Below are positions 5,017 to 64,000 of a stretch of 64,000 nucleotides of DNA, one piece after another. The stretch is taken from contig JAYPQH010000033.1 in NCBI GenBank assembly GCA_038131935.1, positions 15,693 through 79,692 of the forward strand. The letters are read 5' to 3'. The position numbers and the translations under genes are program-made. Below the pieces are notes generated by a model, which saw only the letters and a list, made by a program, of their open reading frames with translations, had not been told where the DNA came from and ran no database searches. Numbering within the stretch: the stretch's first letter is position 1; each line of letters begins with the position of its first letter. The DNA is from Alphaproteobacteria bacterium. GTDB lineage: Bacteria > Pseudomonadota > Alphaproteobacteria > UBA8317.

Positions 5017-5039
5017 GGGTCCTCCGTGCGGACCCATGG
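5013..5039 (-). promoter_or_regulatory. Hairpin covering the phnC RBS and start codon
   Basis: Perfect 10-bp inverted repeat CCATGGGTCC-N7-GGACCCATGG; on the mRNA the GGAGG spans the loop/3' arm and the AUG lies in the 3' arm. Confidence 0.6.
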
Positions 5040-5062
5040 TATTGGTTTCAAAATTTTGCACG

Positions 5063-5929: not shown

Positions 5930-5975
5930 AATTATCTCCATAAGTTACACTAACTATCGAAGATACTTCAATTAT

Positions 5976-5993
5976 TTTTCAGTTTTATGACAT
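5976..5993 (-). promoter_or_regulatory. Putative Pho box upstream of phnD
   Basis: Minus strand reads ATGTCATAAAACTGAAAA versus consensus CTGTCATAAAACTGTCAT (14/18), about 47 nt upstream of the phnD start. Confidence 0.6.
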
Positions 5994-6006
5994 AGGAATA
6001 TTTTTT

Positions 6007-12860: not shown

Positions 12861-13054
12861 TCAATTTTCTAATCAATGTCAACGGTGAAAAGAGCAAGAA
12901 AATTTCTAGGTTTGACGTTGCATAATACGGCTTTGAAGGTTAACCATGCACGGATGTTGGCGAAAATAAAAAACGTTTGAGGACCCTAACACAAGGTTGA
13001 TTACGTTGGTTTTTAGTGTAGCCTTGTAAGATGTTTTTTGGCTTAGGAAGTGAC

Positions 13055-14437: not shown

Positions 14438-14509
14438 AGGGCTTTGATTACGTCGCGTTCAATGCTATGAATAAAGGCCTTGTTCACAACAGACATTGGA
14501 ACGGCCACC

Positions 14510-15631: not shown

Positions 15632-15644
15632 GGAAACCCTGCGA

Positions 15645-16748: not shown

Positions 16749-16820
16749 CCTTCTAGACCTCAGCGTGAGGTCTGATATGATGTTAAAAGAAATGCACCTA
16801 GGTGATTTGGATAGGAATGA

Positions 16821-19220
<2,400 letters not shown>

Positions 19221-19783: not shown

Positions 19784-22700
19784 TTAAGCGGCATTCTTCT
19801 CTTGGCTGGCTTGATAAAATTTGTTCAAGGCAGCCTCGAGTTCCTTTTCTGCTCGAGCCATATTTTCGCACTTTACAGGACCAAATCCCTTTATGGTGGC
19901 AAATGCGTCAAGAATAGCATCTACATGCTGAATTGTGCGTTCATCAATTTGATCTGATATATCATGTAATATGGTGACAAAACGTTCCCGCCATTCATTT
20001 TCTGATTGCCTCTCTTGTGTCCAAGAGAACGGATTAAAAGGTGTGAACCGTAAAAATTTACATTTGGCTAAAAATTTCATGGGCGTCAAAATCCAAGAGC
20101 CGAATTTTCGTTTTTTGGGTCTTCCCGTAAGCTTATCGATACCTGGGAGAAATGGTGGGGCTAGGTATAAGGAAAAAGATCCCTGGTGCTTGAATTCCCG
20201 GTCAAGTTTTTCTTGAAAGTCCACAGATGTGTAAAGCCTAGAGATTTCAAATTCATCTTTGATAGCAAATAGGCGGAAGCCAACATCCAAAGCTTTTGAA
20301 TAGAGCCGTTTGTCTTGGTCGCTTACCGTTGAAACAGATCCCTCAAATGCGGTCATGATGGCTTCAAATCGTGATGCATAAGCATCATTATGGTAATCCT
20401 TTAATTTGGCTTTATAATCACCAAGGTCATTTTTATGTTCTGTTATTGGCTCTTTCAACGTGAACCCATTGACCACAGCTGCACCAAGTTGGAAGGCTTT
20501 TTGATTGTTTTCAACCTGGACACCATTCAAAGATATGGCTTCCATCAGTGCATCATAGGACAAAGGCAAGAGACCTCTTTGCCATGAGTTTCCCAGCATA
20601 ATCATGTTGGCATACATACTATCTCCAAAGCCCGCACGAGAAATGGACTCCGCATCTATGGACACCAAGCTTTGGACTTTTGTCTTTAAAAATTCCAACC
20701 GATCTGGTGAGGATTTAAGGCCTTTGTTACCCTTGGATATAATAAATTCTTTGGTAGGTATAACAGACGTATTGGCAACCATACTGGTTCTTTGATTGTT
20801 GAGTGTTTTGAGCATGTCAGCTGATGTTGCGGTGACAAGGTCACAAGCGATAAACGCGTCTGCTGAGCCTGGGATAATGCGCCCGGTGTGAACAGCTTGG
20901 TCTTGAGAGAATTTGATAGCTGCAGTCACAGCGCCGCCTTTTTGTGCCAAGCCACTGATATCAGCACTGGCAACATTCAAGCCATCTAAATGAGCTGCTG
21001 TAGAACAGATCGCAGAGATCGTCATGATACCGGTTCCCCCAACACCAGTCATCACCATGTTAAAGAAAGGCTGGTTCTCCCAAACAGGTTGTTTTGGAGG
21101 GGTTATGAATGTTGTTAGGCTTTGAAGATCCACTTTTTTGGGGGGCTGTATTGAACCCCCCTCTATCTCCACGAAGGATGGGCAAAAGCCCTTTAAACAA
21201 GACATATCTGTGTTACAATTGGTCTGATTAATTTGTCGTTTGCGACCCAATTCTGTTTCTAAAGGTTCTATAGCGATACAATTTGATTGAATGGAACAGT
21301 CTCCACATCCCTCGCAAACGGCATCATAGATAAATAGCTTTTTGGTATCAGCAGGCCGCTTTCCTCGCTTGATTTGACGTCGCTTTTCCGTGGCGCAGAC
21401 TTGTTCATGAATAAGCACCGATACACCAGGTAATGTCGTCATCTTCTCTTGAACAGATAAGATTTCATCACGATGATAAACGGCTATACCTAAACCGTTG
21501 TGAATTTCGGGGCGATCACTGGTCACAAAAATATGCTGCACCCCTTCAGCCCGGACTTGAGCTACGATGCTTGAAACCGTTTGTTGGCCATCTACAGACT
21601 GCCCACCTGTCATGGCCACAGCATCATTGAAAAGGATCTTGAAGCCTATTGTTTCACCACTTGCTACGGCTTGTCTTATGGCTAATGTTTGTGAGTGGAA
21701 GTAGGTTCCGTCACCAACATTTGCCCATGCATATCCCGGTTCCCTGAACGGAGCGGCACCAATAATCGTCATACCTTCCCCACCCATATGGGTATAACCT
21801 TCTGTTGACTTTCCTTCTTGCAGCTGAACCATCGCGTGGCATCCGATACCAGCGCCAACACGTGCATTGGGAAGAACGCGTGTACCTGTATTATGAGGGC
21901 AGCCAGAACAAAAAATGTGGCACACGTTCAGAAAAACACCTTTGCCTCAATTTTTTTGATCTAATGGTGCCAAAAATTGTTGCAACCTCTTAACAAGTTC
22001 ATTGTCAGCTCCAATCGTCAGAAGCTTTAACAGCGCGCGCGCGCAATCTTTTGATTCTAACGTAACAACTTCTGATAAAAGTGGTTGGCCTTGCGCATCA
22101 GTTTTACCCCAAATCATAGGCCTTTGGGGATGGTGGTAGAGAATGTCTCGAATTTGTGGTTCTAAAAACCGCCTTTTGGGATCTAATACGAGAATAGAAT
22201 GCTTCGTCGTGGCAAATTCCGTAAGACCTTGTGGTTCTAATGGCCATGTAACACCAACTTTGTAAACAGCCAGGGAAGCTTCTTGAAGTATGTCTTCATC
22301 AATACCCAATTCGGCAAATAGATCATAAATTAATCCCATGCCATGTCCTGAGGTAATGATACCAAATTTAGCTTGGGTAGGGCCAAGCACTTGTTTGTTG
22401 AGCTGGTTATGCCGAATGTAGGATAGTGCTGCAGGTAGCCGGATTTCACGAAGTGTTTGTTCTACAACCACCCTATCTTGTAGGCGCGGTACAAAACGTC
22501 CTCCATGGGTACTGTACCCTGGTGCCGTCTCGGGTATGAGGAATTCTTGAGTGGATGGTAGGTAAATCCCTGATCCATCCATCAATTCTGGGGTTACCGT
22601 CATTGCAGTCCATACACCGGCAAAACGTGACATGGCCCATCCATGTAAGCCCATATCTATGATATCTTGTACATGCATCGGGCTGAAAACAGGCATCTCA

Positions 22701-23200
22701 AGATCGGCAAAACTAACATCGGTTTGGGATGCAATTGTGGATGATTTGGCAACAGGGTCATCCCCACCTATGGCCAAAACGCCTCCCCATGGATCTGTCC
22801 CATAAATGTTTGCATGTCGAATGGGATCGCCTGAACGATCAATGCCGGGCGCTTTGGCGTAGAAAAGACCAAAAACACCGTCAAAGAGTTTGCTACTATC
22901 GCGATGGATTTGCTGGGTACCCCATACCATGGTAGCGCCGAGATCTTCATTTACTGCAGGACGAAAAACAATATCATGGGCGTCGAGTAAGGCTTTTGCA
23001 CGTGTCATTTGCATATCAACACCGCCAACAGGGCTTCCACGATAGCCCGTAACAAATCCAGCAGTATGTCGATCAGCAGCTTTATCTCGGCGTGCTTGCT
23101 CCAACACAAGACGCACAAGGGCTTGGGTTCCTGTCATCAAGGAAGGGCCGTCATGCTCATGATATTTATCATCTAACGAAAAATTTGGTCTCAGCCCCAT
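19784..23200 (-). CDS. Single-chain indolepyruvate:ferredoxin oxidoreductase family protein (split by homopolymer indels at ~21910-21960)
   Basis: N part GYRGSP, NEDL; C part FCSGCPHN, GIGCH, GDGTY, NDAVAMTGGQ, CEGCGDC...CLKGFCPS, GVGGTG, GLAQKGG; the two ORFs are collinear halves of one family architecture. Confidence 0.88.
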
Positions 23201-29960: not shown

Positions 29961-31241
29961 ATGCAGGAAGTTTCCCGAGGGGCAATTGTCGATGCCATTG
30001 TGGGTTTTAGGTGGGTAATGCTCCTGGGCCAGGCCATGGCTATAGCAACAGGTGCGCTTGCCTTAGCTGAGCAAGATAACTTTGCAACTCTTTTGACTGT
30101 GCTACTTATTGGCCATCTGCCCACTTACTCGCTTGCTCTTTACCCAAGATGGTTTGTTCCATCCAACTGGCGGCTAGAACTGCTTTTTATTTATGATCTC
30201 ATTCATAACGGTTTGATTATTTGGCTGGCGGGGGGAATTTTTAACCCCTTTCTTCTATTGATGATTGTACCTGTCACATCGGCAGCTATTGTCTGCAGAC
30301 TTGGGTCTACATTTCGGTTGATGGGTTTTGCCGTTTTTTTGATCATCATTATTGGTATCGATAGTTACCACCGTTTGGCGAATAATTTTCAGAGTGATGT
30401 GCTTCTGACCTATATAAGCATGACGGGGATGGCATTCATTCTTGCCATATGTTTTGCGAGCATCATTGCCTTCCGATTGACCCGAGAGGGTAAACGTTTA
30501 GAGACGGCAGCTGGCCTTTTACGTTCAATGCTTGAACGCGAGCGTGGGGTCAGTGCTTTGGGAGCGCATGCAGCTGCAACTGCCCATGAACTTGGCTCTC
30601 CACTGTCAACGATTGCAATTATTGCGAGTGAACTGACGAAGGATAAAAGGTTGCCAGACGATGTTGTTAATGACCTTACGGAGCTCCGTGATCAGACAAG
30701 ACGATGTCGTGAGATATTGAGCGATTTGGCGCGTCGTGGGGAGGTACCAGATCAACAAGAATGTGAGTGGTTGCCTCTCAATGTTACAATAGATCGCGCG
30801 CTGCATCGTATCACGGACAGCGATAAAAAATGGTTGCGGGTGCAATATATGGAGAATGGGCGGCAGGTTGACCCAAGAATAGACCATGCTCCCTTCCTAC
30901 CAGATTTGCCGGGCATAACACTGGCTTTTAAATCCCTGATAGAGAATGCTCTACGGTTTGGTCGTAACCGAGTCGACATTGTATGTTCTTGGTGTGATGA
31001 TGAAGTTTCAATTGCCATTAGAGATGATGGGCCAGGCTTTGCGCGAGATGTTATTGAACGGCTTGGCGAACCTTTTGTCAAAGATCAATGGTCCAACGGT
31101 TTGGGTCTAGGTGTGTTTACAGCCCAAGCTCTGCTCACACGCTCTGGTGCAAAAATTTCGTTCCATAACCGTTCTGATCCAGGTGGTGCAGAGGTTTTTA
31201 TCATGTGGGATCGCGGCGCAATGACGCAGTTAATGGCCTAA
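29961..31241 (+). CDS. regB: RegB/PrrB/ActS redox-sensing histidine kinase
   Basis: Quinone-binding GGIFNPF, H-box AHELGSPL, redox Cys in RCREIL, DDGPG, GLGLG. Confidence 0.9.
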   Translation: MQEVSRGAIVDAIVGFRWVMLLGQAMAIATGALALAEQDNFATLLTVLLIGHLPTYSLALYPRWFVPSNWRLELLFIYDLIHNGLIIWLAGGIFNPFLLLMIVPVTSAAIVCRLGSTFRLMGFAVFLIIIIGIDSYHRLANNFQSDVLLTYISMTGMAFILAICFASIIAFRLTREGKRLETAAGLLRSMLERERGVSALGAHAAATAHELGSPLSTIAIIASELTKDKRLPDDVVNDLTELRDQTRRCREILSDLARRGEVPDQQECEWLPLNVTIDRALHRITDSDKKWLRVQYMENGRQVDPRIDHAPFLPDLPGITLAFKSLIENALRFGRNRVDIVCSWCDDEVSIAIRDDGPGFARDVIERLGEPFVKDQWSNGLGLGVFTAQALLTRSGAKISFHNRSDPGGAEVFIMWDRGAMTQLMA

Positions 31242-31312
31242 ATTGGTAAAATCGCTTGCTTTTAAGCAGCTTCGAACGATCTTTTAGGTGAGGTGATAGA
31301 TAGGAGTATCAT

Positions 31313-31864
31313 ATGGGCATACAACTCAAGGCGCCTAATCAAGATAATGTTGTCGTTGTTGTTGATGACGAAATATCTTTTGCTAACCGTATGGGTCGCG
31401 CTCTTGAGCGTATTGGATTTCAAGTTGAAGTTGCTGGAAATACCCAAGATGCACGGGGCATAATTGAGAGCAAAACACCCAAATATGCTGTGTTTGACAT
31501 GCGGCTTCCTGATGGAAATGGATTAGACTTGGTGAAGCAGCTGAATGAGCGAAGGCCAGATGCATCTATTGTTGTATTAACGGGCTTTGGTAATCTGACA
31601 ACAGCTGTAACATCCGTTAAATTGGGAGCTAAAGATTATCTTGCCAAACCATCTGATGCTGATGATGTTGCGCGGGTATTACTTAGCCAAACCGATGAGC
31701 TCCCAGAGCCACCTGAACAACCAATGTCTGCCGATCGTGTTCGTTGGGAACATATTCAGAGGGTTTTTGAGCAATGTAACCGAAACGTGTCTGAAACAGC
31801 ACGACGGTTAGCCATGCACCGTCGTACCTTACAGCGGATATTGGCGAAGAGAAGTCCACGTTAA
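31313..31864 (+). CDS. regA: RegA/PrrA/ActR response regulator
   Basis: Receiver domain plus the diagnostic C-terminus PMSADRVRWEHIQRVFEQCNRNVSETARRLAMHRRTLQRILAKRSPR. Confidence 0.96.
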   Translation: MGIQLKAPNQDNVVVVVDDEISFANRMGRALERIGFQVEVAGNTQDARGIIESKTPKYAVFDMRLPDGNGLDLVKQLNERRPDASIVVLTGFGNLTTAVTSVKLGAKDYLAKPSDADDVARVLLSQTDELPEPPEQPMSADRVRWEHIQRVFEQCNRNVSETARRLAMHRRTLQRILAKRSPR

Positions 31865-46096: not shown

Positions 46097-46170
46097 ACAA
46101 AAAACCCCTCTAGGCAAAATTGCTATAACTGATACAGTTTCACCTCTTGTTAATGGACCAGGAGGTGAAA

Positions 46171-47078
46171 ATGACAACTTATGGGTTTGTAGGTCTCGGA
46201 AACATGGGCGGTCCCATGGCAGAGCATCTTATCGAGGCGGGACTAGATGTCCTCGTTTTCGATGCGTTGGAAGCAAGCATGGAACCGTTCAAAGGACGGG
46301 CCAAAATAGCCACCTCTCTGGAGGAAATGGGTGCGCAGGCGGATGTCGTTTTTTTGTCACTGCCAACACCTCAATTGTTGAAAAAGTCTGCCTTGGGGAA
46401 GGTGGATTTCATCAGGCGAGCCGCACCAAAATCATTTTTGATTTATCAACAACGGGATCAGAAATGGCTGCCTCAATTCAAGAGCAACTCGCGTCTTCAG
46501 ACATTGTCATGATGGATGCTCCTGTATCCGGTGGCACAGGTGGTGCCAAGAAAGGAACTTTGGCGGTCATGATTTCTGGCCCCAAAAAATATTTTGATGA
46601 ACATCATAAAGCATTATCTTGCTTTGGGACTCCATTTTATGTGGGTAATCAACCGGGCCTCGCCCAAACCATGAAGCTTGCGAACAATATTCTTTCAGCT
46701 GCATCCATGGCCGTTACATCTGAGGTTATGGCATTTGGTGTGCGGGCAGGTTTGAACCCTGATGTGATGTTGTCGATTATAAATAGTGGGACGGGTAGGA
46801 ATACCGCAACGGCCGATAAATTTCCAAGGGGTGTGGTCAATCGTTCGTTTGGCTTCGGCTTTGCCGCTGGACTCATGACCAAAGATGCTCGTCTTTTTGG
46901 TGAGGAAGCACGCGCCCAAGAAATGAACCTTCCTGTTGCCGAGGCTGTTATTGCGACCTGGAATCGTATGGTAGACGAAATAGGTGCTGAAGCAGACTTT
47001 ACCCAAGTCGTGCAATTGATGGAGGGTGATTACGATCTTGTGGTTTCTTCTGACAGCAACCCTGTGAAGGAGGATTGA
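46171..47078 (+). CDS. Beta-hydroxyacid dehydrogenase (3-hydroxyisobutyrate/6PGDH-like; frameshift near 46370)
   Basis: GFVGLGNMGGPMA, SLP, then shifted frame DLSTTG, DAPVSGG, KLANN, MTKD; GGAGG SD. Confidence 0.88.
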
Positions 47079-50759: not shown

Positions 50760-51584
50760 TTAGGGCAATTTAAAGGTAAGGGAAGCCCAGCGGCTAATCC
50801 AACCAGCGCCTTTCTTGTTTGTTTGGGGGTCAACTGGCTCGAGGACAACAAAATCGACAAGGTAAGTCATATTGTCTCGAGGTTTTAATTTCAGTGTCCC
50901 GGTGTCATCGGTAAAAATGGTAGATAAGGTTACACGCCCAGCCTCATCTTTTTCACGGATATGAACCTGATGGTGAGGCAGTGGCTCGTTACGATAGAGC
51001 ATGATCAAAGGTAGTTCTTCTGACGTGTCCTGTACAAATGGATTTTTTGGGGAAAAAATTTCGACGAGCATACCCAATTTAACGTCTTGTCCTTCTGGCT
51101 TTCCTCTTACGACGAAGCTTTTTGCATGACGGCTGTAAAGTTCATAAAATGACTGATCCGGTAATCCTCGCTTGCGATGTTCGTTTATAAAGGGTTCGAG
51201 ACCTTTTTCACGTAAGAAGGCATAAAATTTTTCCGAAGTTTCATATTTTGTATCAAAAGAATTTGTTTCATGTGCCGCGATCAAAAGGCCTGATGGTGGT
51301 TGAGATAGACGCATGGCAGGGACATCACCTAGACGTCCAGATAGGTTTATAACTTTATCTTTTTCGAGGCTATGACCAGCAACAATAATTTCTGACCTCT
51401 TAATATTTTGAGGGAGATATATTTGAGAGATCCCCTGAAATTCCATTCCAACCTTAAGGTTGATCGCAATATCTGTTCCTTGGGGAGCTGAGAACTTTTG
51501 TGGCTCTAACCAAAATTCATGGGCACCAACTGGTGCATGATAAAAAAGAGTCAGAATAAATGTTAGGGCATGACATATTTTCAT
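50760..51584 (-). CDS. DUF4198-family periplasmic protein (putative Ni/Co uptake component)
   Basis: Signal peptide then HEFWLEP, ELYSRHAKS, TDDTG, C-terminal WASLTF. Confidence 0.82.
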   Translation of the reverse strand: MKICHALTFILTLFYHAPVGAHEFWLEPQKFSAPQGTDIAINLKVGMEFQGISQIYLPQNIKRSEIIVAGHSLEKDKVINLSGRLGDVPAMRLSQPPSGLLIAAHETNSFDTKYETSEKFYAFLREKGLEPFINEHRKRGLPDQSFYELYSRHAKSFVVRGKPEGQDVKLGMLVEIFSPKNPFVQDTSEELPLIMLYRNEPLPHHQVHIREKDEAGRVTLSTIFTDDTGTLKLKPRDNMTYLVDFVVLEPVDPQTNKKGAGWISRWASLTFKLP

Positions 51585-51609
51585 GGTAAAGGCCTGTTTT
51601 ATATGAATG

Positions 51610-51622
51610 GCTATGACATAGC
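51610..51622. promoter_or_regulatory. Palindromic operator candidate between divergent metal-uptake genes
   Basis: GCTATG-A-CATAGC perfect inverted repeat in the 58-bp divergent spacer. Confidence 0.4.
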
Positions 51623-51642
51623 ATAATGGAGGACATAGAGAT

Positions 51643-52818
51643 ATGTATCTGGCTCGAATTCTATTACTTTGTTTTTTCTGTCTTCCTTTTTATGTTCACG
51701 CACATGAGGTAAAACCAGCGGTTGCCGATTTGTTTTTTACAGACAAACAGGTGGAACTAAAAATTACCATGCAGTTGGAAGTTGTCCTGGCAGGGATTGA
51801 TGCTTCTCAATATCAAGATACAAATCTCGCCCCGCAGGCTGATCAATATGACCGTTACAGGCAGATGAGCCCATCATTTTTGGCTCAAAAATTTAAAGAA
51901 AATTGGCAAATTATCGCACCTCAAATACGCTTGTTGGCTGACAATAGGTTACTAGACGTAGGCTTGGTTGACGTGAAGGTTGCGGATGTTTCCAATCGTG
52001 AACTTCCACGCGATGGTGTATTCACGCTTCGTGCAACCGTACCGCAAGAGACCAAATCAGTAACATTTGGATGGGATCAAAGCTTTGGATCCTTGGTCTT
52101 ACGTCAACAGATTGAAGGATCAGATCGTGGCTTCACGGGCTTGCTTCAGCCCGGTGTTATGTCTGAGCCCATAACGCGTTCAGGAAGTCCAGAAAAACCT
52201 TTTGGGGATGTTTTTGTTGAATATATCCCAGTGGGCATTGAACATATTGTTCCACTAGGTTTGGACCATATTATTTTTGTTGTTGGGTTATTTTTCTATG
52301 CCGCAGGTATATGGACACTCATCAAACAGGTATCTATTTTTACACTCGCTCATACATGTACCCTTGCTTTGGCAACCTTAGGTTTTGTGTCTGTTCCAGC
52401 GGCTGTGGTTGAACCTTTAATCGCTGCATCCATAGCCTACATCGCTGTTGAAAATATTGTACAAATGGGATCCCGAAAACTTCGGTATTTTGTTATTTTC
52501 TGTTTTGGTCTTCTGCATGGATTGGGTTTTGCTTCTGTTCTGGGAGAATTCGGCTTACCAGGGGATCAAATGTTGGCAGGCCTTTTAGGCTTCAATGTTG
52601 GGGTGGAACTAGGTCAATTGATCGTGTTGTTACCTTTCGTCCTGGTGCTGGGCATTTGGCCAGTTCGCCAGGCTTGGTACCGCGGTGTTGTTCAGATTCC
52701 TGTCTCCGCATCCATTGGTTGTATAGGGCTTTATTGGGCTCTAGATAGATCAGGTTTAATGCCTGAGTCAGTGGCCACATTCATCGACAGTTCCCTCTTT
52801 ACAATTGGTAATCTCTGA
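51643..52818 (+). CDS. HupE/UreJ family membrane protein with periplasmic N-terminal domain
   Basis: Signal peptide then HE; GIEHI..GLDHI, FTLAHTCTL, FGLLHGLGFA, FNVGVELGQ. Confidence 0.9.
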   Translation: MYLARILLLCFFCLPFYVHAHEVKPAVADLFFTDKQVELKITMQLEVVLAGIDASQYQDTNLAPQADQYDRYRQMSPSFLAQKFKENWQIIAPQIRLLADNRLLDVGLVDVKVADVSNRELPRDGVFTLRATVPQETKSVTFGWDQSFGSLVLRQQIEGSDRGFTGLLQPGVMSEPITRSGSPEKPFGDVFVEYIPVGIEHIVPLGLDHIIFVVGLFFYAAGIWTLIKQVSIFTLAHTCTLALATLGFVSVPAAVVEPLIAASIAYIAVENIVQMGSRKLRYFVIFCFGLLHGLGFASVLGEFGLPGDQMLAGLLGFNVGVELGQLIVLLPFVLVLGIWPVRQAWYRGVVQIPVSASIGCIGLYWALDRSGLMPESVATFIDSSLFTIGNL

Positions 52819-52858: not shown

Positions 52859-54039
52859 GTGCTGCCACTTAAGTTGGGTTTGTTTATGATGCCTGTGCAT
52901 ATGCCTGAACGCAATCTTCAGGAGGCATTACAAGAAGATCGTGCGCTTGTTCGTCTGGCTGATCAATTGGGCTTTGCAGAAGCTTGGATGGGAGAGCATA
53001 TTTCGTCTGTAGGGGAGCCAGTACCTTCTCCCTTGATTTTTCATGCAAGCATGATCAGTGAGGCGCCCAACATTCGTTTTGGAACAGGCGTGATCAGTTT
53101 ACCCCAGCACCATCCCGTGATGGTCGCTTCTCATGTGGCGCTGTTAGATCAATTGTCAGCTGGTCGCGTTATCATGGGAATTGGTTCTGGTGGATTATCG
53201 AGTGATTGGGAAATTTTTGGTAACCTGATCACGGACGTGGGCGCGCTATGCTAGAGTCCCTGAGTTATCGAAAAAATTTGGTCTACAGACCCACCTTATC
53301 ATCACAATGGAGAACATTGGACGATTGATACAAGCCAGTATCAACTAGAGCGCTTGGGTGTGGGTCATGTCATCAAACCAATACAGAAGCCTTTTCCTCC
53401 TGTTGCGGTCTCCTTGCGTGGACCAAAATCTGGCTTGGCTGTGTTGGCTGGTGAGAGGGGATGGATTCCCATTTCGGGAATTTTATTGATCAAAAAGATG
53501 TAGCTTGCCACTGGCCTCTTTATGAGCAGGGGGCTGCCAAAGTTGGACGGTCCGTAGATCCTTCTTGTTGGCGTGTTGCTCGTTCTATTTGTATCACGGA
53601 TGATACAGATCTTGCCCAAGATTTGATAAATGACCCTTACGGTGTCTTTGCTGACTATTATTTCTATTTGAACACCCATATGAAGTTGGCCATGGGAATT
53701 TTGCCGGAAGATTGGGATGAACATCAAGAAAGATTGGATGCAGTTGAAAAAGCAAAAAGCTTGGTCATCATTGGAACACAAGGCCAAGTGACAGAGCAAT
53801 TGATGGATTTTGTTGACCATGTCGGTAGATTTGGAACGCTTATCATGACCGGGCATGACGTTCACGGGCATGAACAAATGTGGCACAGAAGTATGCATAT
53901 ATTGGCACAAGATATTGCGCCCAAATTAGATCAGCATGAGCGCAATGGTGGGTGCGTGAGTATTCTTCACAAAAATAATATGCTAAAGTCTTTGCGGTTT
54001 CCAAAAGGACGTGCTACGCCAACTCGATATTACGAATAG
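52859..54039 (+). CDS. Luciferase-like (LLM) flavin-dependent monooxygenase (several frameshifts at ~53230-53470)
   Basis: LGLFMMP, EAWMGEH, FGTGV, HHP, LDQLSAGR; downstream fragments KPIQKPFPPV and WRVARSI. Confidence 0.78.
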
Positions 54040-54059: not shown

Positions 54060-55351
54060 ATGACCAAAAAAAATTTTTCAATTATCAAGCATATAACCCT
54101 TGCCTTCCTCCTGTTTTATCTACCGCAAATCGCAGCAGCAGATCCTGCCGCTCAGCTTCAATCGTTGATTTTGAACACAGGGGATGTGCAAACTGCAAGA
54201 AATGAATATCTCCTGTCAAAAGTGAACGTGAAGGTGCGTGAAGCTGAAACCATGCCACAGGTATCGGCATATACAAATTCTAATTTATCCATTGCACGCG
54301 AAGTTGACCGTCGAAATGCTGTGAGATTTACTGACGAAGATCTTGATTATTTTGATGTGGTAACATCGGTCGAGCATAATCTTTATGATTTTGGTAAAGC
54401 TGAGAATGAGATTAGTGCCCTATCAAGCAGATCTGATGCTGCAAGATTTATGATTTCTAGAAGCGTTTGAGAGAGTTAGACAGCCTTCTGCAGAAGACTT
54501 ACCGCGGATGTCGAAACAATAGAACGTCAATTCTCAAATTTGGTAACTGAATTATTAGATTTTGAGAAGCGTGCAAATAACCGCTTTCGTTCTGGGGTAG
54601 GTACATTGGCCGAGGCGCGTGAGGTGTCATTATTAATACTCGATGCGCAAAACAATCTTGCTGAAAGTGAAAAAAGACAGGCTGAGTTGTTACAGCGCAT
54701 GAAAGCGCGTTACGGATCTGTACCTGAAAGTCCAGATGCCTCATTTTGCCCCACTTGGTGAAAATTCGATCAGGTTGAGTTGCGCAACACCAAATTCTTT
54801 ACAGGCGTTAATGCGCGCTCAAGAGGGCTTGAGTTTGAAACCAAGGCTTTGGAAGTAAGCCGTATGCCAACTTTTGATCTTGGAGGTCGGTTGACGATTA
54901 TTGATGTAACGCGGGGCTTGAATGAGTATGATATGACAGTGGGTGTAACAGTGCGCATGCCGTTGTATGATGGCGGAGCTAATGCAGCGCGTCAGACAGA
55001 GCTTTCCTACCGTAAGCAGATCGAGGAGCAAAAGAAACGTGCTATCCTGCAGGACAAATCTCAGAAGTTAGAGGTCATTCTCCTGGATCGTACAAGGCTC
55101 CTTGAAAAAATGACCAATGCCAAGACCGACTTAAAACCATCGCAGAAAAATTGCGGGAGCTCGATATTCGGCGTGACGCAACGGGAACTTCAATCAACGA
55201 ATTGGCTGAAACAATTGTGGACCAAGCCAATGCAAAGATTGTGGTGGAAACAAATCCTCTTGAGGTTTTAAAGTTGTTGGTTGCCCAGCATGGCGTCACC
55301 GAAACCCTACTATCGGCACTGAAGATAGCGCCCAATCCTGAAAGATTTTAA
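54060..55351 (+). CDS. TolC-family outer membrane channel of the T1SS (several frameshifts)
   Basis: Signal peptide, NLYDFG, RFRSGVGT, VRMPLYDGG repeat motifs spread across 4 fragments; directly upstream of the ABC and HlyD genes. Confidence 0.75.
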
Positions 55352-55352
55352 T

Positions 55353-57067
55353 ATGACGGAACAATATGCAGCAGGTGCAAAAGAACATTGGTTCTTTGGA
55401 CCTGTTTTTCGTGCCAAACATGAGTTGTTCCAACTCATTCTTGGCTCAGTTTTGATCAATATATTTGCCTTGGTCAGTGCCTTCTACATTATGATCGTCT
55501 ATGATCGCGTCATTCCCAATGAGGCTATTGAAACGCTTTATGCATTAACAATCGGCGTCATGATTGTTGTTGCGTTTGACTTATTGATGAAGGTATTGCG
55601 GGGTTTGTTCACTGATCGCGCAGGTGCGGTGGTTGATGAAGAGGTTGCTGCAACCCTATTTGATCGACTTTCTCGTAATGAAGCGCTTGCCACCCAACAA
55701 ACAGGTAAAACAGCAAGCATTGTCAAAGAATTCGACTTGCTTCGCGATTTCCTAGGATCCGCCACATTCGTGGCGTTTGCAGATCTGCCTTTCGTTATTA
55801 TCTTCCTTTTTGTTTTGTATTCAATTGGCGGTTTGGTGGTGTTGGTACCCACCATCATTGTCGTTACCATTCTTTTGTTGGGGTTGTTGATTCAACCCGT
55901 TTTGCGCCGTCTTACACGCAATGCTGCAGTTGATGGACAATCAAAGCAAGCGGTTTTGGTTGAAGTTCTCTCTGGAATGGAAACACTTAAAACATTACGC
56001 GGCATGGATATTCTTCGCCATCGTTGGATGAACTCTGTTCGTAGCCAAGCAGGCTTCTCAATGAAGTCAAAATTTTGGTCGCAGTTGACATCAAATTTTT
56101 CACAAACAGGGCAGCAATTGTCCCAGGTTGGTATTGTCGTGTTTGGGGTTTTCCTTATCATGGAAGGTTCTTTTGACCATGGGGTCATAATTGCTTGTGT
56201 GATCTTGTCAGGCCGCACGCTCGCACCTCTTGGTCAGATCAGCAATTTGTTGGGGCGTCTCAGCCAAGTTTCACGGCTTACGATAATTTGAACCAACTTA
56301 TGCAGCAGCCCGTCACCGAGGTTGAGCGCTCAGAGTATTTGCGTATTCATGAGGTTGAGGGAAACATCACCTTCAGCAATGCAGGTTTACAGTACCCTAA
56401 GCAGAAAAAACCTTCGGCAGATGATATCTCATTGGCCATTGGTGCTGGAGAAAAAGTTGCAGTCCTTGGAAGAATTGGATCTGGGAAAACAACAATACTT
56501 CGCATGATTGCAGGTTTGGTTCAGCCAACCAGTGGTATGGTACAGGTCGATAGAACTGACGTCTCTCATTTCCATCCTGATGATTTGCGTAAACATGTAT
56601 CTGTGGTCATGCAGCAGCCGCTTATATTTTCAGGTACTTTGCGGCAGAATATAACACTTGGAAACCCAGATGCTACAGATGAAGAAATCATGCATGTCGC
56701 GAGGCTAACAGGTGTGGATGGCTTGGCTTCGATGCTGCCTGATGGCTTTGACACCATGCTGACTGAGCGCGGAATGCAATTGTCTGGTGGCCAGCGTCAA
56801 GCGATCTGTATTGCCAGAGCTCTGGTAAATCCATCCAAAATACTTCTCTTAGATGAACCAACATCAGCCATGGATTCTAATACTGAAATGGCTGTGATGA
56901 AGAATATAATGATTGCGGCCAAAGATAAAACCGTCATTTTGGTAACCCATAGGGGTATTCTTGTTGATCTCGTTGAGCGGGTTGTTGTGATGGACTCTGG
57001 AAAAATTATTGCCGATGGTCCCCGTGAAGAGATCAAGCAGAAACTACGTGGTGGGGGTGCAGCCTGA
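55353..57067 (+). CDS. Type I secretion ABC transporter (permease + ATPase; frameshift near 56268)
   Basis: VYDRVIP, DLPF, GRTLAPL; GRIGSGKT, LSGGQRQ, LDEPTSAMD, VTH. Confidence 0.9.
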
Positions 57068-58329
57068 TGGCACAAAAAAAATCATTTTGGTTTTCAAACA
57101 TCATCTTTTATTTGATAGTCATTTTTTTTGCGGTTGCAGGTTTTTGGGCCTATGTCGCAGAGATCGATCAAGTTGTGCGTGCTGAAGGAGAGGTGGAGCC
57201 GGTTGGTAAGGTGCAGCCCGTTCAGTCTTTATATGGGGGCACTGTTGCAGAGTTAAACGTCGCTGTTGGTGATATGGTTGAGAAGGATCAAGTTGTTATC
57301 AGGCTGGATGAACAAGAGCCTGTCGCAGAATTTGAGCAGAATGAAATTACCTATGTAAGTGCTGCCGCTCGCTACGCGCGTCTTTATGCAGAGGCCAATA
57401 GCCTGTCTTATATTGAGTTTCCTGACGATGTTCCACTGAGTTTACGTTTGTCAGAGCGCGCGGTCTTTTTATCACGACAGAAAACCCTAGAAGGCCGTCG
57501 TCGGGTTCTACAGCAAGAATTGCAAAGTGCCAGAAATGATAAACTTGAAGCCGACAATGCAATAAAAGCGGCACGCAACCGTTTGAAATTGGTTGATGAG
57601 GAATATGATCTTTACGAACCTTTGGTGAAACAAGGTATTGAGCCCCGCGTGAAGCTATTTGATATTGAGACGCGTAAGGTTCAAACCCAGGATGAAATTA
57701 CCCAGCGGCGCATCGAGAGTAATGGTGCTGAAATACGTATTCAAAAGTTTTTGGATGAAATCACACAGCTGGACAATCAGTTTCGATCCGATGCGGGTGA
57801 GCAAATGTATCGCGAAGTGGAAGCGCGTGATAAGGCCGCCTCAGAGCGGATTCGGTTGGCTGAGCGGTTGTCACAAACAGATTTAAAAGCACCGAGTTCA
57901 GGTATTGTGACGTCTGTAGCGGTACCTGGTCCTGGTGCTGTTGTTCGTGGTGGTGACGTCTTGCTTGAGATCGTTCCATCTGCTGATAATTTTACGATCT
58001 TAGCAAGAATTCCGGTTAAAGACATCTCAAAGGTATCTGAGGGTCAAACAGCAAGGGTCTCTTTCTCAGCCTATGATTTTAGTCGCTATGGTGTCATGAT
58101 GGGGCGTTTTAAGCGTATCGCACAGAACACCACAGAGACTGAGCAGGGTGAGCGTTATTATGAAGCATGGGTCGAAACGGAGGGAAAAACCTTCTCAAAA
58201 TCACCAATAGAGCCCCAAATTGTTCCAGGTATGGCCGCCACGGTTGATGCCTTGGGCGAAAAGAGAACTGTGGTCGAGTATATCATGAGCCCATTGAATA
58301 GAATGGCCAGCAAAGCATTAACAGAATAA
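57067..58329 (+). CDS. HlyD-family T1SS membrane fusion protein
   Basis: Single TM, EIDQVVRAEGEV, coiled coil, APSSGIV, AYDFSRYG, PGMAATVD, RTVVEY..SPL. Confidence 0.93.
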   Translation: MAQKKSFWFSNIIFYLIVIFFAVAGFWAYVAEIDQVVRAEGEVEPVGKVQPVQSLYGGTVAELNVAVGDMVEKDQVVIRLDEQEPVAEFEQNEITYVSAAARYARLYAEANSLSYIEFPDDVPLSLRLSERAVFLSRQKTLEGRRRVLQQELQSARNDKLEADNAIKAARNRLKLVDEEYDLYEPLVKQGIEPRVKLFDIETRKVQTQDEITQRRIESNGAEIRIQKFLDEITQLDNQFRSDAGEQMYREVEARDKAASERIRLAERLSQTDLKAPSSGIVTSVAVPGPGAVVRGGDVLLEIVPSADNFTILARIPVKDISKVSEGQTARVSFSAYDFSRYGVMMGRFKRIAQNTTETEQGERYYEAWVETEGKTFSKSPIEPQIVPGMAATVDALGEKRTVVEYIMSPLNRMASKALTE

Positions 58330-58347
58330 TTACCAAGGAGAGTAAAA

Positions 58348-58578
58348 ATGGCAGATACAGTAAGTGAAGGCGTAACAAACACAAACAACAATCAAAATGT
58401 TGTTATTGACGGCGTGACCTATAAACTTGATGACTTAAGCCAGGACGCTCGTGCATTACTCGGGTTCTTGGCGCGCCTAGATCGAGAAATTGCTGAGGCA
58501 CGATTTGCTTTGGATCGCAACATGATGGCGAGACGTGGGGCAACAGAGCAACTTAAAACGCTTCTTCCATCAACCTGA
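58348..58578 (+). CDS. Small protein, DUF6447-like
   Basis: AGGAG SD; VVIDGVTYKLDDLSQDAR followed by an amphipathic helix; last gene of the T1SS operon. Confidence 0.7.
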   Translation: MADTVSEGVTNTNNNQNVVIDGVTYKLDDLSQDARALLGFLARLDREIAEARFALDRNMMARRGATEQLKTLLPST

Positions 58579-58974
58579 TGGCCATCCGATCTAACAGGGC
58601 AGGTGTGCTTGGAATGTCCATGTACGTTAGAGCTCAGACAATCACAAAAGTTGTTTTGTGTTGAAACAACGACAAGGACACTCACCTATCTAGATTGATG
58701 GGTGGGCATGTAACACCAAAAATAATTCTTAAAAATCCCAGATCATAATTGATGTAACATGTGCATCGGTTCAATATTTATCTTGCCAAAAAGAGAGTGT
58801 TCTAGCTCAATTGTCTCATAAATTGTTGAATGTTTTCAAAACATCGAATTTATGAATTTTAAATATACTTGAAGAAATCTTATTTATAGGTTTTTAGCGC
58901 TGCGCTAAAAGTATGAGAGCGATACGTTCACGATTATCGTCTCGTTACTTTCAGAAGATAAAAAAATGACAAAA

Positions 58975-59007
58975 TTTCTATCAAATTGTCATCATAATGT
59001 CATCAAA
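58975..59007 (+). promoter_or_regulatory. Pho box upstream of the giant phosphatase gene
   Basis: 11-bp periodic repeats TTTCTATCAAA-TTGTCATCATA-ATGTCATCAAA matching the CTGTCAT-N4 PhoB consensus, about 55 nt before the start codon. Confidence 0.75.
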
Positions 59008-59061
59008 TCAACCTAAACCATCCTTTGGAATTTTCTTTAAATTATATTTATGAGGATAAAA

Positions 59062-62000
59062 ATGGCTGATAATGATCTTGTAACAATTGGTGAAACAATC
59101 GCCTTGATGCCAGAAGCTAGCACGGCAAATGATCCAAGTGCGTTGCTTGATGGTCAGAGTGGAGATAAGAATTTCCCATTCGCGAGATTTAAACCCTTAG
59201 CCACAGTCGGTGAGGTCGATCCTGTAACAGGAGATGCATTGACTGGTCAGCCAGACGGCAACGCAGCCTTCCTAAAGGATGATGATACAATCACCGTTGT
59301 CTACCAGTCAGAATCATATGGACTTATGAGCACACAAACTTACGGTTGGGAAATGGCCAGCGGTGTAAGTTTCACTGGATCTCATCCATACCATTGATTA
59401 TGATCGCGAGAAGTTTGCAGAATTTTTAGAAACTGGTGATTCAGCTGCTGATATGTTTTTGGAATCAGGTCATCTTTTTGACACAATTTACAACGTATTT
59501 GGCGAGGTTGTGGATGGAAAAAATGATGACGCAACAGATCTCTCTGCAAAATGGGGAAATCAAACTTTACCTACAGGCGAATTGGTGGATTTTGTACAGC
59601 CTTTGACGGAAGGTGATTTCTTCTTCCAGTCATTCTGCAGTGCTTTCTTGGAGACGGCCAATAAATATGGTGACGGGATTGGGTTTGAAGACAATGTTTG
59701 GCTGACGGCTGAAGAGTGGAACATTCGCTATATTTTTCCAGATGGCGTAGCCACATCTAATGAAACAATGGGTTTGGCATCCATAGCTGTGGATGTTGAT
59801 ACAGGCATTGCATATACAGTCCCAGCCTTGGGTCAAACTGGTTATGAGAAATTGTTGCCCATAAATCCAGGCCACCCAGATTACGTTGTTATCGTTCTCG
59901 CAGGCTACAATCACGAACAAGAGCCTGCTCCACTTAAGATTTATGTGGGTGTTAAAGGCAAAGACGCTGATGGCAATGATGTTGACACAACGGGAACAGA
60001 TCGGGATGCATTCTTAGCGCGCAATGGACTCCTACATGGTAAAATCTACGGCATGGCCGTGGCCAATGATGACTATGCTGATCTTGGTATAGATGTTGTT
60101 GATCCAACCGCAAAAATGTTTGATGCTTATATGAAAGATGCAGATGCGGCAACCGAATTTTCTGCCAAATTTGTAGCGACATCATATCAGTGGGAAGGTT
60201 TTGACAAAGCCAGTTGCCGTCAAAGACACAGAGATGATGTTGTGGGATGATGCCGCAGAGCAACCTGTTGATCATACCTTCTTCAATGGAGACACAAAAG
60301 TTGAGCATCCTGCAGTAGACCCAGACATAACAAAGTTCCGTTGGGTCAGAAATATGACTGATGAAGGTGGTCTCATCGGAATTGAATTAACGAATTTGGT
60401 GGCAGAGTTGACGGCTGCCAATGGTGCTTTACCAGATGCTCTTTCTGCTGATGTTACCCGAATAATTGCGGCTATAGATGGAGAGATGTCTTTAGAAACT
60501 GGTGATAAGGGCATTGGGAATGGGCTAGATGGCCTGGACGATGCTGACAACTCCAAAACTGACGCCTCAGAAACAGCAGAAGTCTTTATTCCCACTGGGG
60601 AAGCAAAAATGGTGGCGCCAGATGGATTGATGTGGGTAAAGACCGCAGATGGTGACTTCCTTATCGTAGATGAAGATGCAGGTAACCCTTACGGCGAAAG
60701 AAAATATATCATTGAAATTGACTCAGATACGATGCAACCAGTTGAAACAGAAAACGGTCATGAGGGTTATTTCCTTGCCCAAGCTGGTGGATCTTTAAAT
60801 CCAAGGGGTGATGTTGCATCAATACCGGAGTGCTGCATCGGGTGCTACGTCTGCAGAATTTTCTGGAAGCTGGAACGTATCTGCGCTCGTGGCCAGGAAG
60901 GAGGATGGTTCTTTCTACACCAAAGAGGAACTCACAGGCACGAAGTTGCAAGAAGTGAACGAGTCATTGGCATTGAATGAGTCCACCTTTATTGGTGTAC
61001 TTCAAGAGCGTTCAGAATCTGGTGGCCAGGTGGAAGAAGTGAAGGCTGATAATGGTGGTCAGATCTTCGCGTTTAATGTTGATTTGGGTGGTTACACTGA
61101 ATTGCAGTTGCTTCATGCAACCGACCTTGAAAGTGGTTTTGAACAGTTATCAACTGCAGCAAATATGAAGGTCCTTGCTGACTTCTATTCTAACAGTGAT
61201 ACCTTGTTCATCTCCTCTGGTGATAATTTTATTCCAGGTGCATATTTTAATGCCGGTGGTGATGCCTCAATGGCTGCTATTTATAATCAAGCATTTAACG
61301 ATTTTTATGGGCTTGATGATTCCAGTCAGTATGCAGATTTGCGCGCAGAGGCAGGTTTCGCTGATATTGCGATCATGAACTTGCTTGAAATTGATGCATC
61401 AGTGATCGGTAACCACGAATTTGACGCAGGTGCATCCGTATTTGGCGATATGATTACGCACTATCCACGTGGTGCAGGTCTCGAGAATGACCGTTGGATT
61501 GGGGCACAGTTCCCGTATCTTTCTGCCAACCTTGATTTCTCAAATTCTGGACTCGCCGACTACTACACCGATGATATCCTCGCTGGGTCAGAATTTGAGA
61601 TTACGCCAGAAGAAGCAGCAGCGGTTACGGCGAAGTATCAAGACGGATCAGGTCAAAAGAAGTTGGCGCCTGCAGCAGTGCTTACCACAGACAGTGGAGA
61701 AACTTACGGTGTGATTGGTGTCACAACACCATATCTGGCCTCTATTTCCTCCCCGGGTTTGGTTGAAGTGGTGAATGCTGATGGCACACGCAACGATACC
61801 ATTTACAATTCAGATACTAGAGATGCTGAAATGACTGAGCTTGCAAAGCTGGTGCAGGTTCAAGTTGATCGTCTCGAAGCCTCTGGTGTGAATAAGATTA
61901 TTTTGACATCGCACTTGCAGGATTTTGCTTATGAAAAGCTCCTCGCCACAAAATTGGATGGTGTTGATATTATTATTGCTGGTGGGTCAGATACAATTCT

Positions 62001-64000
62001 TGCCAATGATGCTGATGACCTCCGTGCTGGTGACGTAGCCGTTGATACATACCCTGTTACGAATATTACGGATCTTTCAGGCAACAACACTTACCTCGTT
62101 TCAACGGATGGTCAGTTTAACTATCTTGGTCGTTTGAACGCGACTTTTGATTCCGCCGGTCATGTGGTTTTCGTCGACTATGAAAATTCTGCACCAATTT
62201 CGACAGAAACAGAAAATGTTGCTGCTATCACAGGTCTTAAAGTTGATAGTGATGGTAACATCGATCTTGCTGATGATGGCCTTAATGCTGGAAGCTCTCT
62301 TATCGAGAAGGCTTCAATAATAGAAGATGTTGTGAATGGACTTGAGGCGGTAGCGGCATCAAAGGATTCAAATGTTGTGGGATTGACAGACGTTTATCTA
62401 GAAGGTCGTCGTTCTAAGGTGCGTACCGAAGAAACCAACTTGGGTGATCTTAGCGCAGACTCTCTTTTGCATGCCACACGTCAATTTGACACTGTTTTCG
62501 CGTTCAAAAACGGCGGTGGTATACGTTCTGAAATCGGTGATTCATCAACTGATGAGAATAACATCACCACATTTACAGCACCTCTTGCTAACGAGCAGAC
62601 CGGTCGTGAGGAAGGTGAGGTATCACAACCATTGAAACCTCATTGAAGTTCAACAATGGCGTTACATTGCTTGAGCTTTCTGGCTCGGACCTGAAGGAAA
62701 TCTTGGAGCATGGCGTCAATGGTTTCTTGAATGCTGACTCTCAGCCTGGTCAATTTCCTCAAGTAGGTGGTTTGTATTTCTCGGTGGATATGGATCAGCA
62801 AGCTGGTGACCGGATCACTGAAATTGCGTTGGTTGATGAGGATGGCTTCGTTACCCAGCATATTTACAACAATGGTTCCTTTGTTGGTGATGCGGCAACC
62901 CAAGAATTCCGTGGTGCAAGCCTTAATTTCCTCGTCGAGAATGATGGTGACGGATATCCGTTCAGTACACTTGCGCAGAATGTTGAAGTGATTGATGGAT
63001 TTGGCGAACAAGAAGCGTTCGCCATGCTGATGTCTGATCAGTATCTTGTGGAAGCTTATGATACAGCTGAAACATCAAAGACATATGATACACGTATCCA
63101 ATTCATGGATTCAGAAATCTTCGGGGAAGGTCGTGAAGCACTAGTTTCTCTCATTCCAGAGGCAAGCAGATCAGTAGCTCCTAAGGTTGCATCATCTACG
63201 ACGCTTGGGTCAGTTGCTGACGAAGGTGGAGCAGAAATTGTTTCTGTTGATGGAGCTATCGCTGCGGTAACCAACGGCATTGATAACCGTGTTGAAATTC
63301 TTGATATGGAAGATCCTGAGCATCCTGTTCATCTTGGTGCATTAGATGTACGCGAGATGGCCAGCGATGATATCACACTGGTTGGTGGTATTACCTCTTT
63401 TGATTTGGGAGAAGGCATTACCTCTGTTGCCATTAAAGGTGAAACGGTTGTTGCGTCATACAAAAACGGTGATGTATCTCTCGGTGGCTATGTGGTTACC
63501 TACAAAGTGCCTGGCGGAGATTTAGCCTCTGCAACAGCCATGGTATCTCAAGTTGGTGTCCAACCTGATTGCGTGATCTTAAACGCTGACGGTACATTGG
63601 CCTTTACGGCTGATGAAGGTGAAATCACGATCGTCAACGGCGAATATGTTGATCCACAAGGTTCTATTTCCATCATTGATACGGCAACTGGTGCGGTTAC
63701 AAAGATTGGGTTTGATCATCTTGATGCCGCTACACTGAAAGCAGCCGGCGTTCGCATATCTGATGCCTCTTCATCCGCTGCAGCTGATATTGAGCCAGAA
63801 TATGTGGCGCTTTCTGATGATGAATCCTTGCTATTTGTTACGCTGCAAGAGAACAATGCGGTTGCCAAAATTGATATTAGTGGCATTGTTGCAGGTCAAA
63901 CTGTGAATGCGGCGGACATCATGGAAATTCTGCCACTTGGTTATAAAGATCATAACCTTGCAGATGGCACCAGGAGTTGGATGCGTCAGACAGAGATGGT
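59062..64000 (+). CDS. Giant multidomain phosphatase (atypical alkaline phosphatase-like + 5'-nucleotidase + choice-of-anchor I); frameshifted here and truncated by the window end
   Basis: Collinear fragments joined at ~59385, ~60207, ~60828, ~62630 and ~63975. Domain 1: PDG, QSESY, QSFC, EEW, KVEH, APDGL, DED, EFSG. Domain 2: LLHATDLE, GDNF, GNHEFD, NGGGIR, QFPQVGG. Domain 3: VGVQPD, ADEGE, DPQGSISIID, EPEYV, LQENNA, LPLGYKDH, DASDRDG. Confidence 0.8.

Follow-up and report, generated by a model that had tools for sequence, protein, structure and literature searches.

Known systems closest to the locus

Six classes of alkaline phosphatase are recognised, the newest being Psip1 (PMC11665274), which was first described in 2024 by Torcello-Requena et al. 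(PMC11098088). Here, we analyse a 64,000-nucleotide stretch of alphaproteobacterial DNA (the window), which carries at positions 54060 to 64000 the genes of a type I secretion system (T1SS), followed by a giant gene for a predicted chain of phosphoesterase domains whose first member we provisionally assign to the Psip1 family.

Psip1 (PMM1416 of Prochlorococcus MED4) has no conserved CDD domain, and its BLAST matches are named hypothetical or hemolysin-type calcium-binding proteins. It forms a PhoX-like propeller, shares metal-site residues with PhoX and needs Fe and Ca, its activity has been measured, with a very high affinity for mono- and diesters, and psip1 genes include fusions with phytase-like domains and open reading frames (ORFs) with several copies (PMC11098088). 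Roseospira navarrensis, Nioella, Cyanobium, and Crocosphaera chwakensis are taxa or genera named as psip1 carriers (PMC11098088 and PMC12260270), with C. chwakensis alone among eight Crocosphaera genomes having a psip1 ortholog (PMC12260270). The export route of the signal-less Psip1 forms is left open in PMC11098088, the accessible part of which does not mention type I secretion, and no paper in the literature searched mentions both Psip1 and type I secretion. The N-terminal module of the giant gene resembles Psip1 in the lack of a Pfam or CDD domain, the predicted beta-propeller, the hemolysin-type calcium-binding names, the alphaproteobacterial carriers including R. navarrensis, the phytase-like fusions, the tandem copies, the phosphate-starvation context, and the occurrence of signal-less forms (PMC11098088). 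It differs in being the first of three domains in a protein projected to have about 2150 residues and in lying beside a T1SS.

PhoX (PF05787), which is exported by Tat (PMC11098088), is the nearest named family of the module by language-model features, whereas neither the Pfam PhoX model nor the PhoX structures in the PDB match the module in sequence. The remaining two domains of the giant protein have a putative counterpart in PhoAaty, which, on an annotation lead, may be a 5'-nucleotidase-like and choice-of-anchor I pair. Very large, Pho-regulated extracellular phosphoesterases comparable to the giant protein are PhoAaty (Synechococcus PCC 7942, Synechocystis) and the phoA/nucH products (PMC11665274). 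The PhoAaty enzymes differ in lacking the Psip1 module, and descriptions of them include no exporter next to their genes.

For the arrangement of exporter and cargo, a parallel is found outside the phosphatases. The serralysin proteases (PrtDEF, AprDEF) and the family I.3 lipases have no N-terminal signal and a C-terminal beta-roll, are exported by an ABC protein without a C39 domain, and are encoded beside their exporter. Structures of these proteins are the best fold matches of the C-terminus of the closest database relative of the giant protein (P0001, see below). The cargo in the window would be 4 to 5 times larger and is made of phosphoesterase domains, the repeats-in-toxin (RTX) repeats, as seen in P0001, are few and degenerate, and the ABC protein is nearest to the LssB subfamily, not to PrtD.

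A regulatory parallel exists in Synechocystis 6803, where PhoB mediates the induction of the T1SS gene slr1651 and the RTX protein gene sll0721 under phosphate deficiency. The sll0721 product is the most abundant exoprotein at low phosphate and was interpreted by the authors as an exotoxin, an acyltransferase gene lying close by (PMC11126600). Both cases pair a T1SS gene with a protein that is, or here is predicted to be, secreted, with PhoB control established in Synechocystis and suggested by a Pho box here, but in the window the Pho box precedes the cargo gene only. The parts of our locus are therefore of known kinds, and the novelty suggested for its layout by the first-pass annotation has to be narrowed, because multi-domain RTX phosphoesterases are common in the databases and a PhoB-controlled T1SS with an RTX protein has been published (PMC11126600). 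What looks new is their combination, with a Psip1-like module fused to a nucleotidase variant and to a choice-of-anchor I domain and the whole placed after an exporter and a Pho box.

A candidate phosphate-scavenging secretion unit

We consider it probable that the T1SS genes and the single large multi-phosphoesterase cargo gene with its own Pho-box promoter make up a phosphate-scavenging secretion unit. At low phosphate, PhoB would bind the site at 58987-59003 and switch on the giant gene. The unfolded cargo would then be threaded, C-terminus first, through the ABC/HlyD/TolC channel by means of an RTX-like C-terminal region and would fold outside the cell on binding Ca2+, where it could free phosphate from several classes of dissolved organic phosphorus.

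The order on the forward strand is TolC-like gene, ABC exporter, HlyD, 76-codon ORF, spacer, and giant gene. The elements listed by the first-pass annotation, namely the tolC-ABC-hlyD-small ORF series, the Pho box, and an acidic gene of more than 1600 codons without an N-terminal signal, are all found at the positions given for them, although that annotation understated that the TolC-like, ABC, and giant genes have broken frames.

As had also been proposed, the exporter genes form a type I secretion set, judged by their matches to OEP, TIGR03375, and TIGR01843. The TolC-like outer-membrane factor (54060-55351, about 430 codons, Sec-type N-terminus, broken frame) matches Pfam OEP in two pieces with 24.6 and 25.3 bits, barely above the cut-off of 22, and scores 20.8 bits against TIGR01844, the cut-off of which is 225. 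The type I secretion ABC permease/ATPase of the LssB type (55353-57067, about 571 codons) is split by one frameshift, so that neither half reaches the TIGR03375 (type_I_sec_LssB) cut-off of 693.1: the first scores 329.5 bits over profile positions 129-433 and the second 333.1 bits over positions 433-694 of 696. It further matches Pfam ABC_membrane (70.3 bits) and ABC_tran (109.3 bits), is nearer to the LssB subfamily than to PrtD (329.5 versus 132.9 bits), and lacks an N-terminal C39 or C39-like domain, the TIGR03375 coverage beginning at profile position 129. The HlyD-family adaptor (57067-58329, 420 aa) is intact and scores 287.7 bits against TIGR01843 (cut-off 208.65). Its database relative P0271 is 100% identical, followed by proteins of 44 to 46% identity.

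The small ORF (58348-58578, 76 aa) has an AGGAG ribosome-binding site in front and matches no family in Pfam or NCBIfam. By ESM Atlas features, its nearest clusters carry DUF6447 (PF20045; score 0.92, 21 of 30 matches), which we regard as a lead only, and the literature searched contains no mention of DUF6447. Several of these DUF6447 clusters are mostly viral. Of the 12 pieces scanned, 5 have no match in Pfam, namely the small ORF, a single TolC piece, and pieces 1 to 3 of the giant gene.

The giant gene (59062-64000, + strand) begins with an ATG preceded by an AGGA site and is still open at the window end, 1646 codons later. Read through its frame changes, it contains no stop inside the window. 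The in-window product is very acidic (isoelectric point 4.05, D+E 17%, K+R 5.3%), and direct reading of its N-terminus (MADNDLVTIGE...) reveals neither a hydrophobic core nor a twin arginine. It consists of three parts: a module of about 680 aa, a 5'-nucleotidase-like domain, and a choice-of-anchor I domain. The pieces had been taken for a single gene, and this holds, because they are colinear with the single uninterrupted proteins P0122, P0128, P0132, and P0001. In tblastn searches, residues 1-668 of P0122 are colinear with the window across three frame changes, as are P0128, P0130, P0132, and P0139 across the frame changes, and the fourth frame change is spanned by P0001. The last protein (1467 aa) is the best relative, being, in the comparison with 61096-63962, 91.2% identical over 511 aa in the nucleotidase part and then 98.9% identical over 444 aa in the choice-of-anchor I part, an unevenness that suggests recombination or strain mixing in the assembly. 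It reaches about 509 aa past the window end, and the full giant protein is projected at about 2150 aa if it continues like P0001.

The Psip1-like module

The N-terminal module (59062-61090, about 680 aa) has no sequence match in Pfam, NCBIfam, or the PDB, a profile built from 26 members gave 0 matches in the PDB, and scanning these 26 family members found no family covering the module in any of them and no PhoX. Among 1.84 billion representatives searched exhaustively with HMMER, only 195 were relatives at an E value of 0.001. In a scan of one genome per species (185,579 species), 169 of 210 pattern matches were confirmed as relatives, and 77 loci were kept. The confirmed relatives of the latter scan include R. 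navarrensis DSM 15114, Nioella nitratireducens, and Cyanobium, and the profile search adds a Halothece protein named "Hemolysin-type calcium-binding region" and a C. chwakensis protein. In a plasmid collection, no module relative was found, and the HlyD relatives there are at most 33% identical.

The module family has an invariant Cys and several invariant acidic residues, and the module of the window keeps all 10 invariant and all 26 near-invariant positions. Known partner domains were found in 9 of 20 scanned relatives (PhoD, endonuclease/phosphatase, GDPD, phytase-like, choice-of-anchor I, 5_nucleotid_C, or RTX), and no family was found in the remaining 11. The order of the parts varies: P0121 has two tandem module copies, P0132 has the module followed by a 5'-nucleotidase domain as in the window, and P0412 has the order nucleotidase, module, choice-of-anchor I.

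We modelled the module with AlphaFold2 on the stand-in P0128, which is 58 to 63% identical to the pieces in the window. The model (mean predicted local distance difference test score [pLDDT] 88.4, predicted template modelling score 0.90) is confident, mostly beta, and folds into a propeller. In a protein-language-model search, the PhoX family set accounts for 26 of the 30 nearest clusters, with a best score of 0.94. Based on its rarity, taxa, naming, and fusions, the module is assigned as a putative member of the Psip1 alkaline-phosphatase family.

The module is also widespread in abundant marine clades, namely Pelagibacteraceae (L008-L015 and L066, with SAR11 single-cell genomes), SAR116 (L004 and L049-L056), and Verrucomicrobiota (L028, L032, and L040-L046). 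Some of the Verrucomicrobiota proteins (P0121 and P0391-P0401) carry two tandem copies.

A variant nucleotidase and a choice-of-anchor I domain

The second part (61096-63170) consists of a metallophosphoesterase region with variant ligands, followed by 5_nucleotid_C (PF02872), which is split into two pieces in the window (27.2 and 43.8 bits) and reaches 73.6 bits in P0001. The domain also matches NF006937/NF006935 and the 5'-nucleotidases of the PDB (E value, 1.6e-18), while Pfam Metallophos gave no match at an E value of 0.01. The canonical 5'-nucleotidase ligand motifs are D-x-H, GNHE, and GGH, in this order. The window domain keeps GNHEFD, its first ligand motif is D-L-E, and the GGHSH of the Thermus enzyme (PDB ID 2z1a) aligns with GGSDT. 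These changes are conserved: among the 120 relatives in the matches listed, D-x-E is found in 118 and GG-SD in 97 of the 119 that bear GNHEFD. By these motifs, the domain belongs to a variant subfamily and is not a canonical 5'-nucleotidase/UshA member, and the ligand change suggests a different metal preference. The 5'-nucleotidase piece gave 74 pattern matches in the species-representative genomes, none of which was confirmed as a close relative, and hence no near relative of the source organism is present among the species representatives.

The choice-of-anchor I domain (63222-64000), a propeller, is cut off by the window end. It matches PF22494 with 81.0 bits (cut-off 32) and NF038117 with 132.9 bits, missing the cut-off of 300 since only profile positions up to 223 of 458 fall inside the window, and P0001 scores 252.3 bits. 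A search for longer proteins (8000 scored candidates) found 1476 relatives at an E value of 1e-5. Among the 120 of these in the matches listed, about 32 carry RTX repeats (PF00353) and about 23 carry PF18962, the sorting domain of the type IX secretion system, a mixture that fits the name "choice of anchor". Many proteins with the 5'-nucleotidase and choice-of-anchor I pair are labelled "alkaline phosphatase" by their sources.

On the Skermanella rosea plasmid pSR-2, a 2021-aa choice-of-anchor I protein starts with a nucleotidase-like domain, and about 100 nt upstream of its gene (region L078 13840-13900) lies CTGTCAC-ATTA-CTGAAAT, a half-matching Pho box.

C-terminal region and predicted export route

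The C-terminal 262 aa of P0001 contain three tandem RTX-like nonapeptide repeats (residues 1225-1251, at the level of a regular expression) and end with ...DFVFAAEII. This domain is also found at the C-terminus of P0122 and P0023 and internally in P0016. In a Foldseek search with the low-confidence AlphaFold2 model of this region, each of the top 38 matches is an RTX beta-roll domain from type I cargo, among them MIS38 lipase (E value, 3.8e-4), serralysin, PrtC, the alkaline protease AprA, AlgE R-modules, and CyaA block V.

The module relatives give a second line of evidence. In P0128, a Sec-type signal precedes the same mature N-terminus as in the window, and RTX ends occur instead in P0130 and many members of about 900 aa. 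Simple heuristics for Sec signals and RTX motifs, applied to 249 module-bearing proteins, call a signal with fewer than three RTX motifs in 32, at least three RTX motifs without a signal in 57, and both in none, with the remaining 160, many of them fragments, having neither. The module family is thus predicted to use two alternative export devices, a Sec signal or an RTX end.

Presumed promoter of the giant gene

The AT-rich intergenic region in front of the giant gene (58579-59061, 483 bp, GC 0.39-0.41) is its presumed promoter. It contains a Pho-box-like direct repeat, TGTCAT-N5-TGTCAT, at 58987-59003 (TGTCATCATAATGTCAT), 75 nt upstream of the ATG at 59062. No second exact copy of TGTCAT-N5-TGTCAT occurs in the 64 kb, and 0 of 100 shuffles gave any match. 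With one mismatch allowed, the window holds 2 matches versus 0.74 expected. The strict 18-nt Escherichia coli Pho-box consensus finds nothing in the window at up to 3 mismatches, the core repeat alone matching.

Pho-type sites (at most 2 mismatches, at most 400 nt upstream) are present in 8 of 75 related loci and in 14 of 1306 control windows (Fisher p = 9e-6), an enrichment that is overstated to some degree, since the control windows are mostly coding DNA and the upstream regions are AT-rich. The sites of family members in other genomes cluster 146 to 186 nt before the mature N-terminus, at a distance similar to that in the window. From these predicted sites, Pho control seems to be general for the module family.

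Upstream of the Pho box, the spacer also holds a perfect 9+9 palindrome, TTTTAGCGC-T-GCGCTAAAA, at 58892-58910 and a second inverted repeat of 9 nt at 58816-58855, both of which may be operator sites.

A wider proposal can be attached to this locus, which we put forward as a speculation that is rather doubtful as a whole. In it, the signal-less Psip1-type phosphatases would be type I cargo, and this locus would be the first in which the Psip1 class is fused to two phosphoesterase domains behind its own exporter and Pho box. A single polypeptide would then unite two or three of the six classes, and, with carboxylates in place of histidine ligands, the whole machine might run on Ca and Fe without zinc.

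Alternative explanations

Several observations weigh against the proposed secretion unit, including the lesions, the synteny results, and the gene start of P0001 that are taken up below, and the composition of the Pho-box control windows. The C-terminus of the giant gene lies beyond the window and is inferred from P0001 alone. P0001 itself has no PF00353 or PF08548 match at E values up to 10, the AlphaFold2 model of its C-terminus has a mean pLDDT of 56, although with 75 to 84 over residues 140-240, and the TM-scores of its beta-roll matches are only 0.2 to 0.38. Comparing the P0128 module model with the PDB, Foldseek found only weak generic propellers and no PhoX among the 50 best matches, so that the PhoX-like fold rests on the published description and the language-model search.

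The alternative that survives best is that the locus is a decaying relic, in which small deletions and nonsense mutations have inactivated exporter and cargo and nothing is secreted, the identities of the parts being unchanged. Three-frame reading of the TolC-like gene shows three stops in its frame, at 54468, 54477, and 54759, together with one frameshift near 55106-55271, the ABC gene has one frameshift near 56195-56291, and the giant gene has four, near 59385, 60207, 60810-60850, and 62630. This amounts to about 9 lesions in 9.9 kb (TolC-like gene 4, ABC gene 1, cargo gene 4), or about 0.9 per kb, versus only about 3 to 4 found in the other 54 kb, or about 0.1 per kb. Two of the lesions in the locus resemble 2-nt and 4-nt deletions outside homopolymers, others lie at short runs, and stop codons are unusual as long-read errors.

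The window has whole genes in dnaA, dnaN, recF, gyrB, a PBP1-type gene, and many others, along with some broken ones. The indolepyruvate ferredoxin oxidoreductase gene (19784-23200, - strand) has an in-frame stop near 21944-21949, its pieces matching profile positions 15-410 and 440-1164 of 1170. A HIBADH-type dehydrogenase gene (46147-47078) is frameshifted, and a luciferase-like monooxygenase gene (52859-54039) is in two or more pieces. TGA as a sense codon was considered as an explanation of the in-frame stops and rejected, because TAG is also among the stops that break the TolC-like gene and because well-defined genes in the window end in TGA or TAA.

The lesions of the locus are either assembly errors or real decay, the stops among them and their concentration in this locus speaking for decay. 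On the other side, the module has lost none of its 36 conserved positions, the final 444 aa are nearly identical to the uninterrupted P0001, and HlyD is intact and has an identical counterpart among the database entries. Broken housekeeping-type genes elsewhere in the window show that lesions are general in the assembly or genome, and the uneven identity to P0001 suggests strain mixing, which would raise the number of local consensus errors. Decay is a serious possibility, to which we give somewhat less than an even chance. The proposal of a type I-secreted multi-phosphatase, made by the first-pass annotation, stands in its description of the protein, with a chain of phosphoesterase domains, no N-terminal signal, and an RTX-like end by proxy of P0001, while, with roughly 9 lesions, the system may not work in this strain.

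The second alternative is that exporter and giant gene are neighbours by chance, the T1SS serving another cargo, for example an adhesin, and the phosphoesterase leaving by a T1SS encoded elsewhere. In tblastn searches (E value, 1e-5), none of the 77 related loci has a HlyD or ABC-membrane relative within 10 kb, and no exporter is found near the 2021-aa choice-of-anchor I gene of the annotated plasmid pSR-2. The 483-bp spacer with its own promoter separates the two units, the exporter operon is not preceded by a Pho box (at most 2 mismatches), and the closest HlyD relatives carry the source name "adhesin transport system". The description of the exporter as "dedicated" in the first-pass annotation is not borne out by these results. 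However, the genes form a same-strand tandem, and the 10 kb upstream contain no further candidate cargo. A C39-like domain is typical of adhesin exporters, and the ABC protein has none. In addition, the giant phosphoesterase P0016 (2563 aa, 50% identical to the window protein) and the HlyD protein P0277 (46% identical) probably lie on one 32,035-bp contig, each being listed with a longest contig of this length from the same source, which is the sole hint of the same linkage elsewhere and comes from a lineage that is only 46 to 50% identical. We regard chance adjacency as unlikely and retain the secretion unit as the preferred explanation.

Of similarly low probability, in our view, is the presence of two cargo genes, one Psip1-like and one with the 5'-nucleotidase and choice-of-anchor I domains as in P0001, their fusion being an artefact of a lost stop or an error. 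P0001 (with a gene model starting MTTLQLL...), P0016, and P0412 all start where the 5'-nucleotidase domain begins, and the Psip1-like module in the organism of P0001 may be a separate gene or absent. The linker between module and nucleotidase in the window is only about 5 residues long. Against this, the frame used (60799-62646) has no stop between the domains, and P0132 shows the same fusion with a linker of about 7 residues. A lone module ending with FNVDL would, moreover, lack both an N-terminal signal and an RTX end, and no full-length member of that kind is seen among P0128 with its signal, P0130 with its RTX end, and P0122 with its C-terminal domain.

Finally, it is highly improbable that the product is a calcium-binding surface or matrix protein rather than mainly a phosphatase, as might be thought since MSP130, a fold linked to biocalcification, has its bacterial counterparts in the choice-of-anchor I domains, which have predicted Ca2+ sites (PMC11878542), and since the nucleotidase-like domain lacks two canonical histidine ligands, given the Pho-box-like site in front of the gene, the association of the module family with PhoD, GDPD, phytase-like, and nuclease domains, the measured activity of Psip1 (PMC11098088), and the conservation of the variant ligands, which argues for a working metal site.

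Other features of the window

The window contains a second phosphorus-acquisition locus, about 50 kb from that of the giant gene. At 3465-7155 on the reverse strand, phosphonate ABC transporter genes (permease, ATPase, and PhnD-type binding protein) lie beside a PhnM-like gene (NF011987, 350.7 bits). The genes dnaA, dnaN, recF, and gyrB follow each other at 13031-19220, all intact, and the chromosomal origin region is part of the window. Positions 29961-31864 encode a RegB/RegA (ActS/ActR) two-component pair (297.7 and 274.5 bits), a hint of an alphaproteobacterial origin. Just upstream of the secretion locus, at 50760-52818, DUF4198 and HupE/UreJ-type genes are divergently arranged and may serve in metal uptake. 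The Rfam scan of the window found only a tRNA.

Implications for phosphorus acquisition

Extracellular phosphatases control the recycling of dissolved organic phosphorus by marine and freshwater bacteria. A Psip1-type module with an RTX-like end beside a type I exporter would give a concrete, testable answer to the question of how signal-less Psip1 forms are exported. If the lesions are real, the locus would instead record the loss of phosphate-scavenging capacity in one lineage. The conserved ligand change in the nucleotidase-like domain may bear on the trace-metal cost of phosphorus acquisition. More broadly, the locus shows that phosphoesterase domains are combined in a modular fashion. Many different arrangements of Psip1-like, 5'-nucleotidase-like, choice-of-anchor I, PhoD, GDPD, phytase-like, and nuclease domains are found, and gene-by-gene "phoX" or "phoD" counts in metagenomes would therefore miss much of the capacity.

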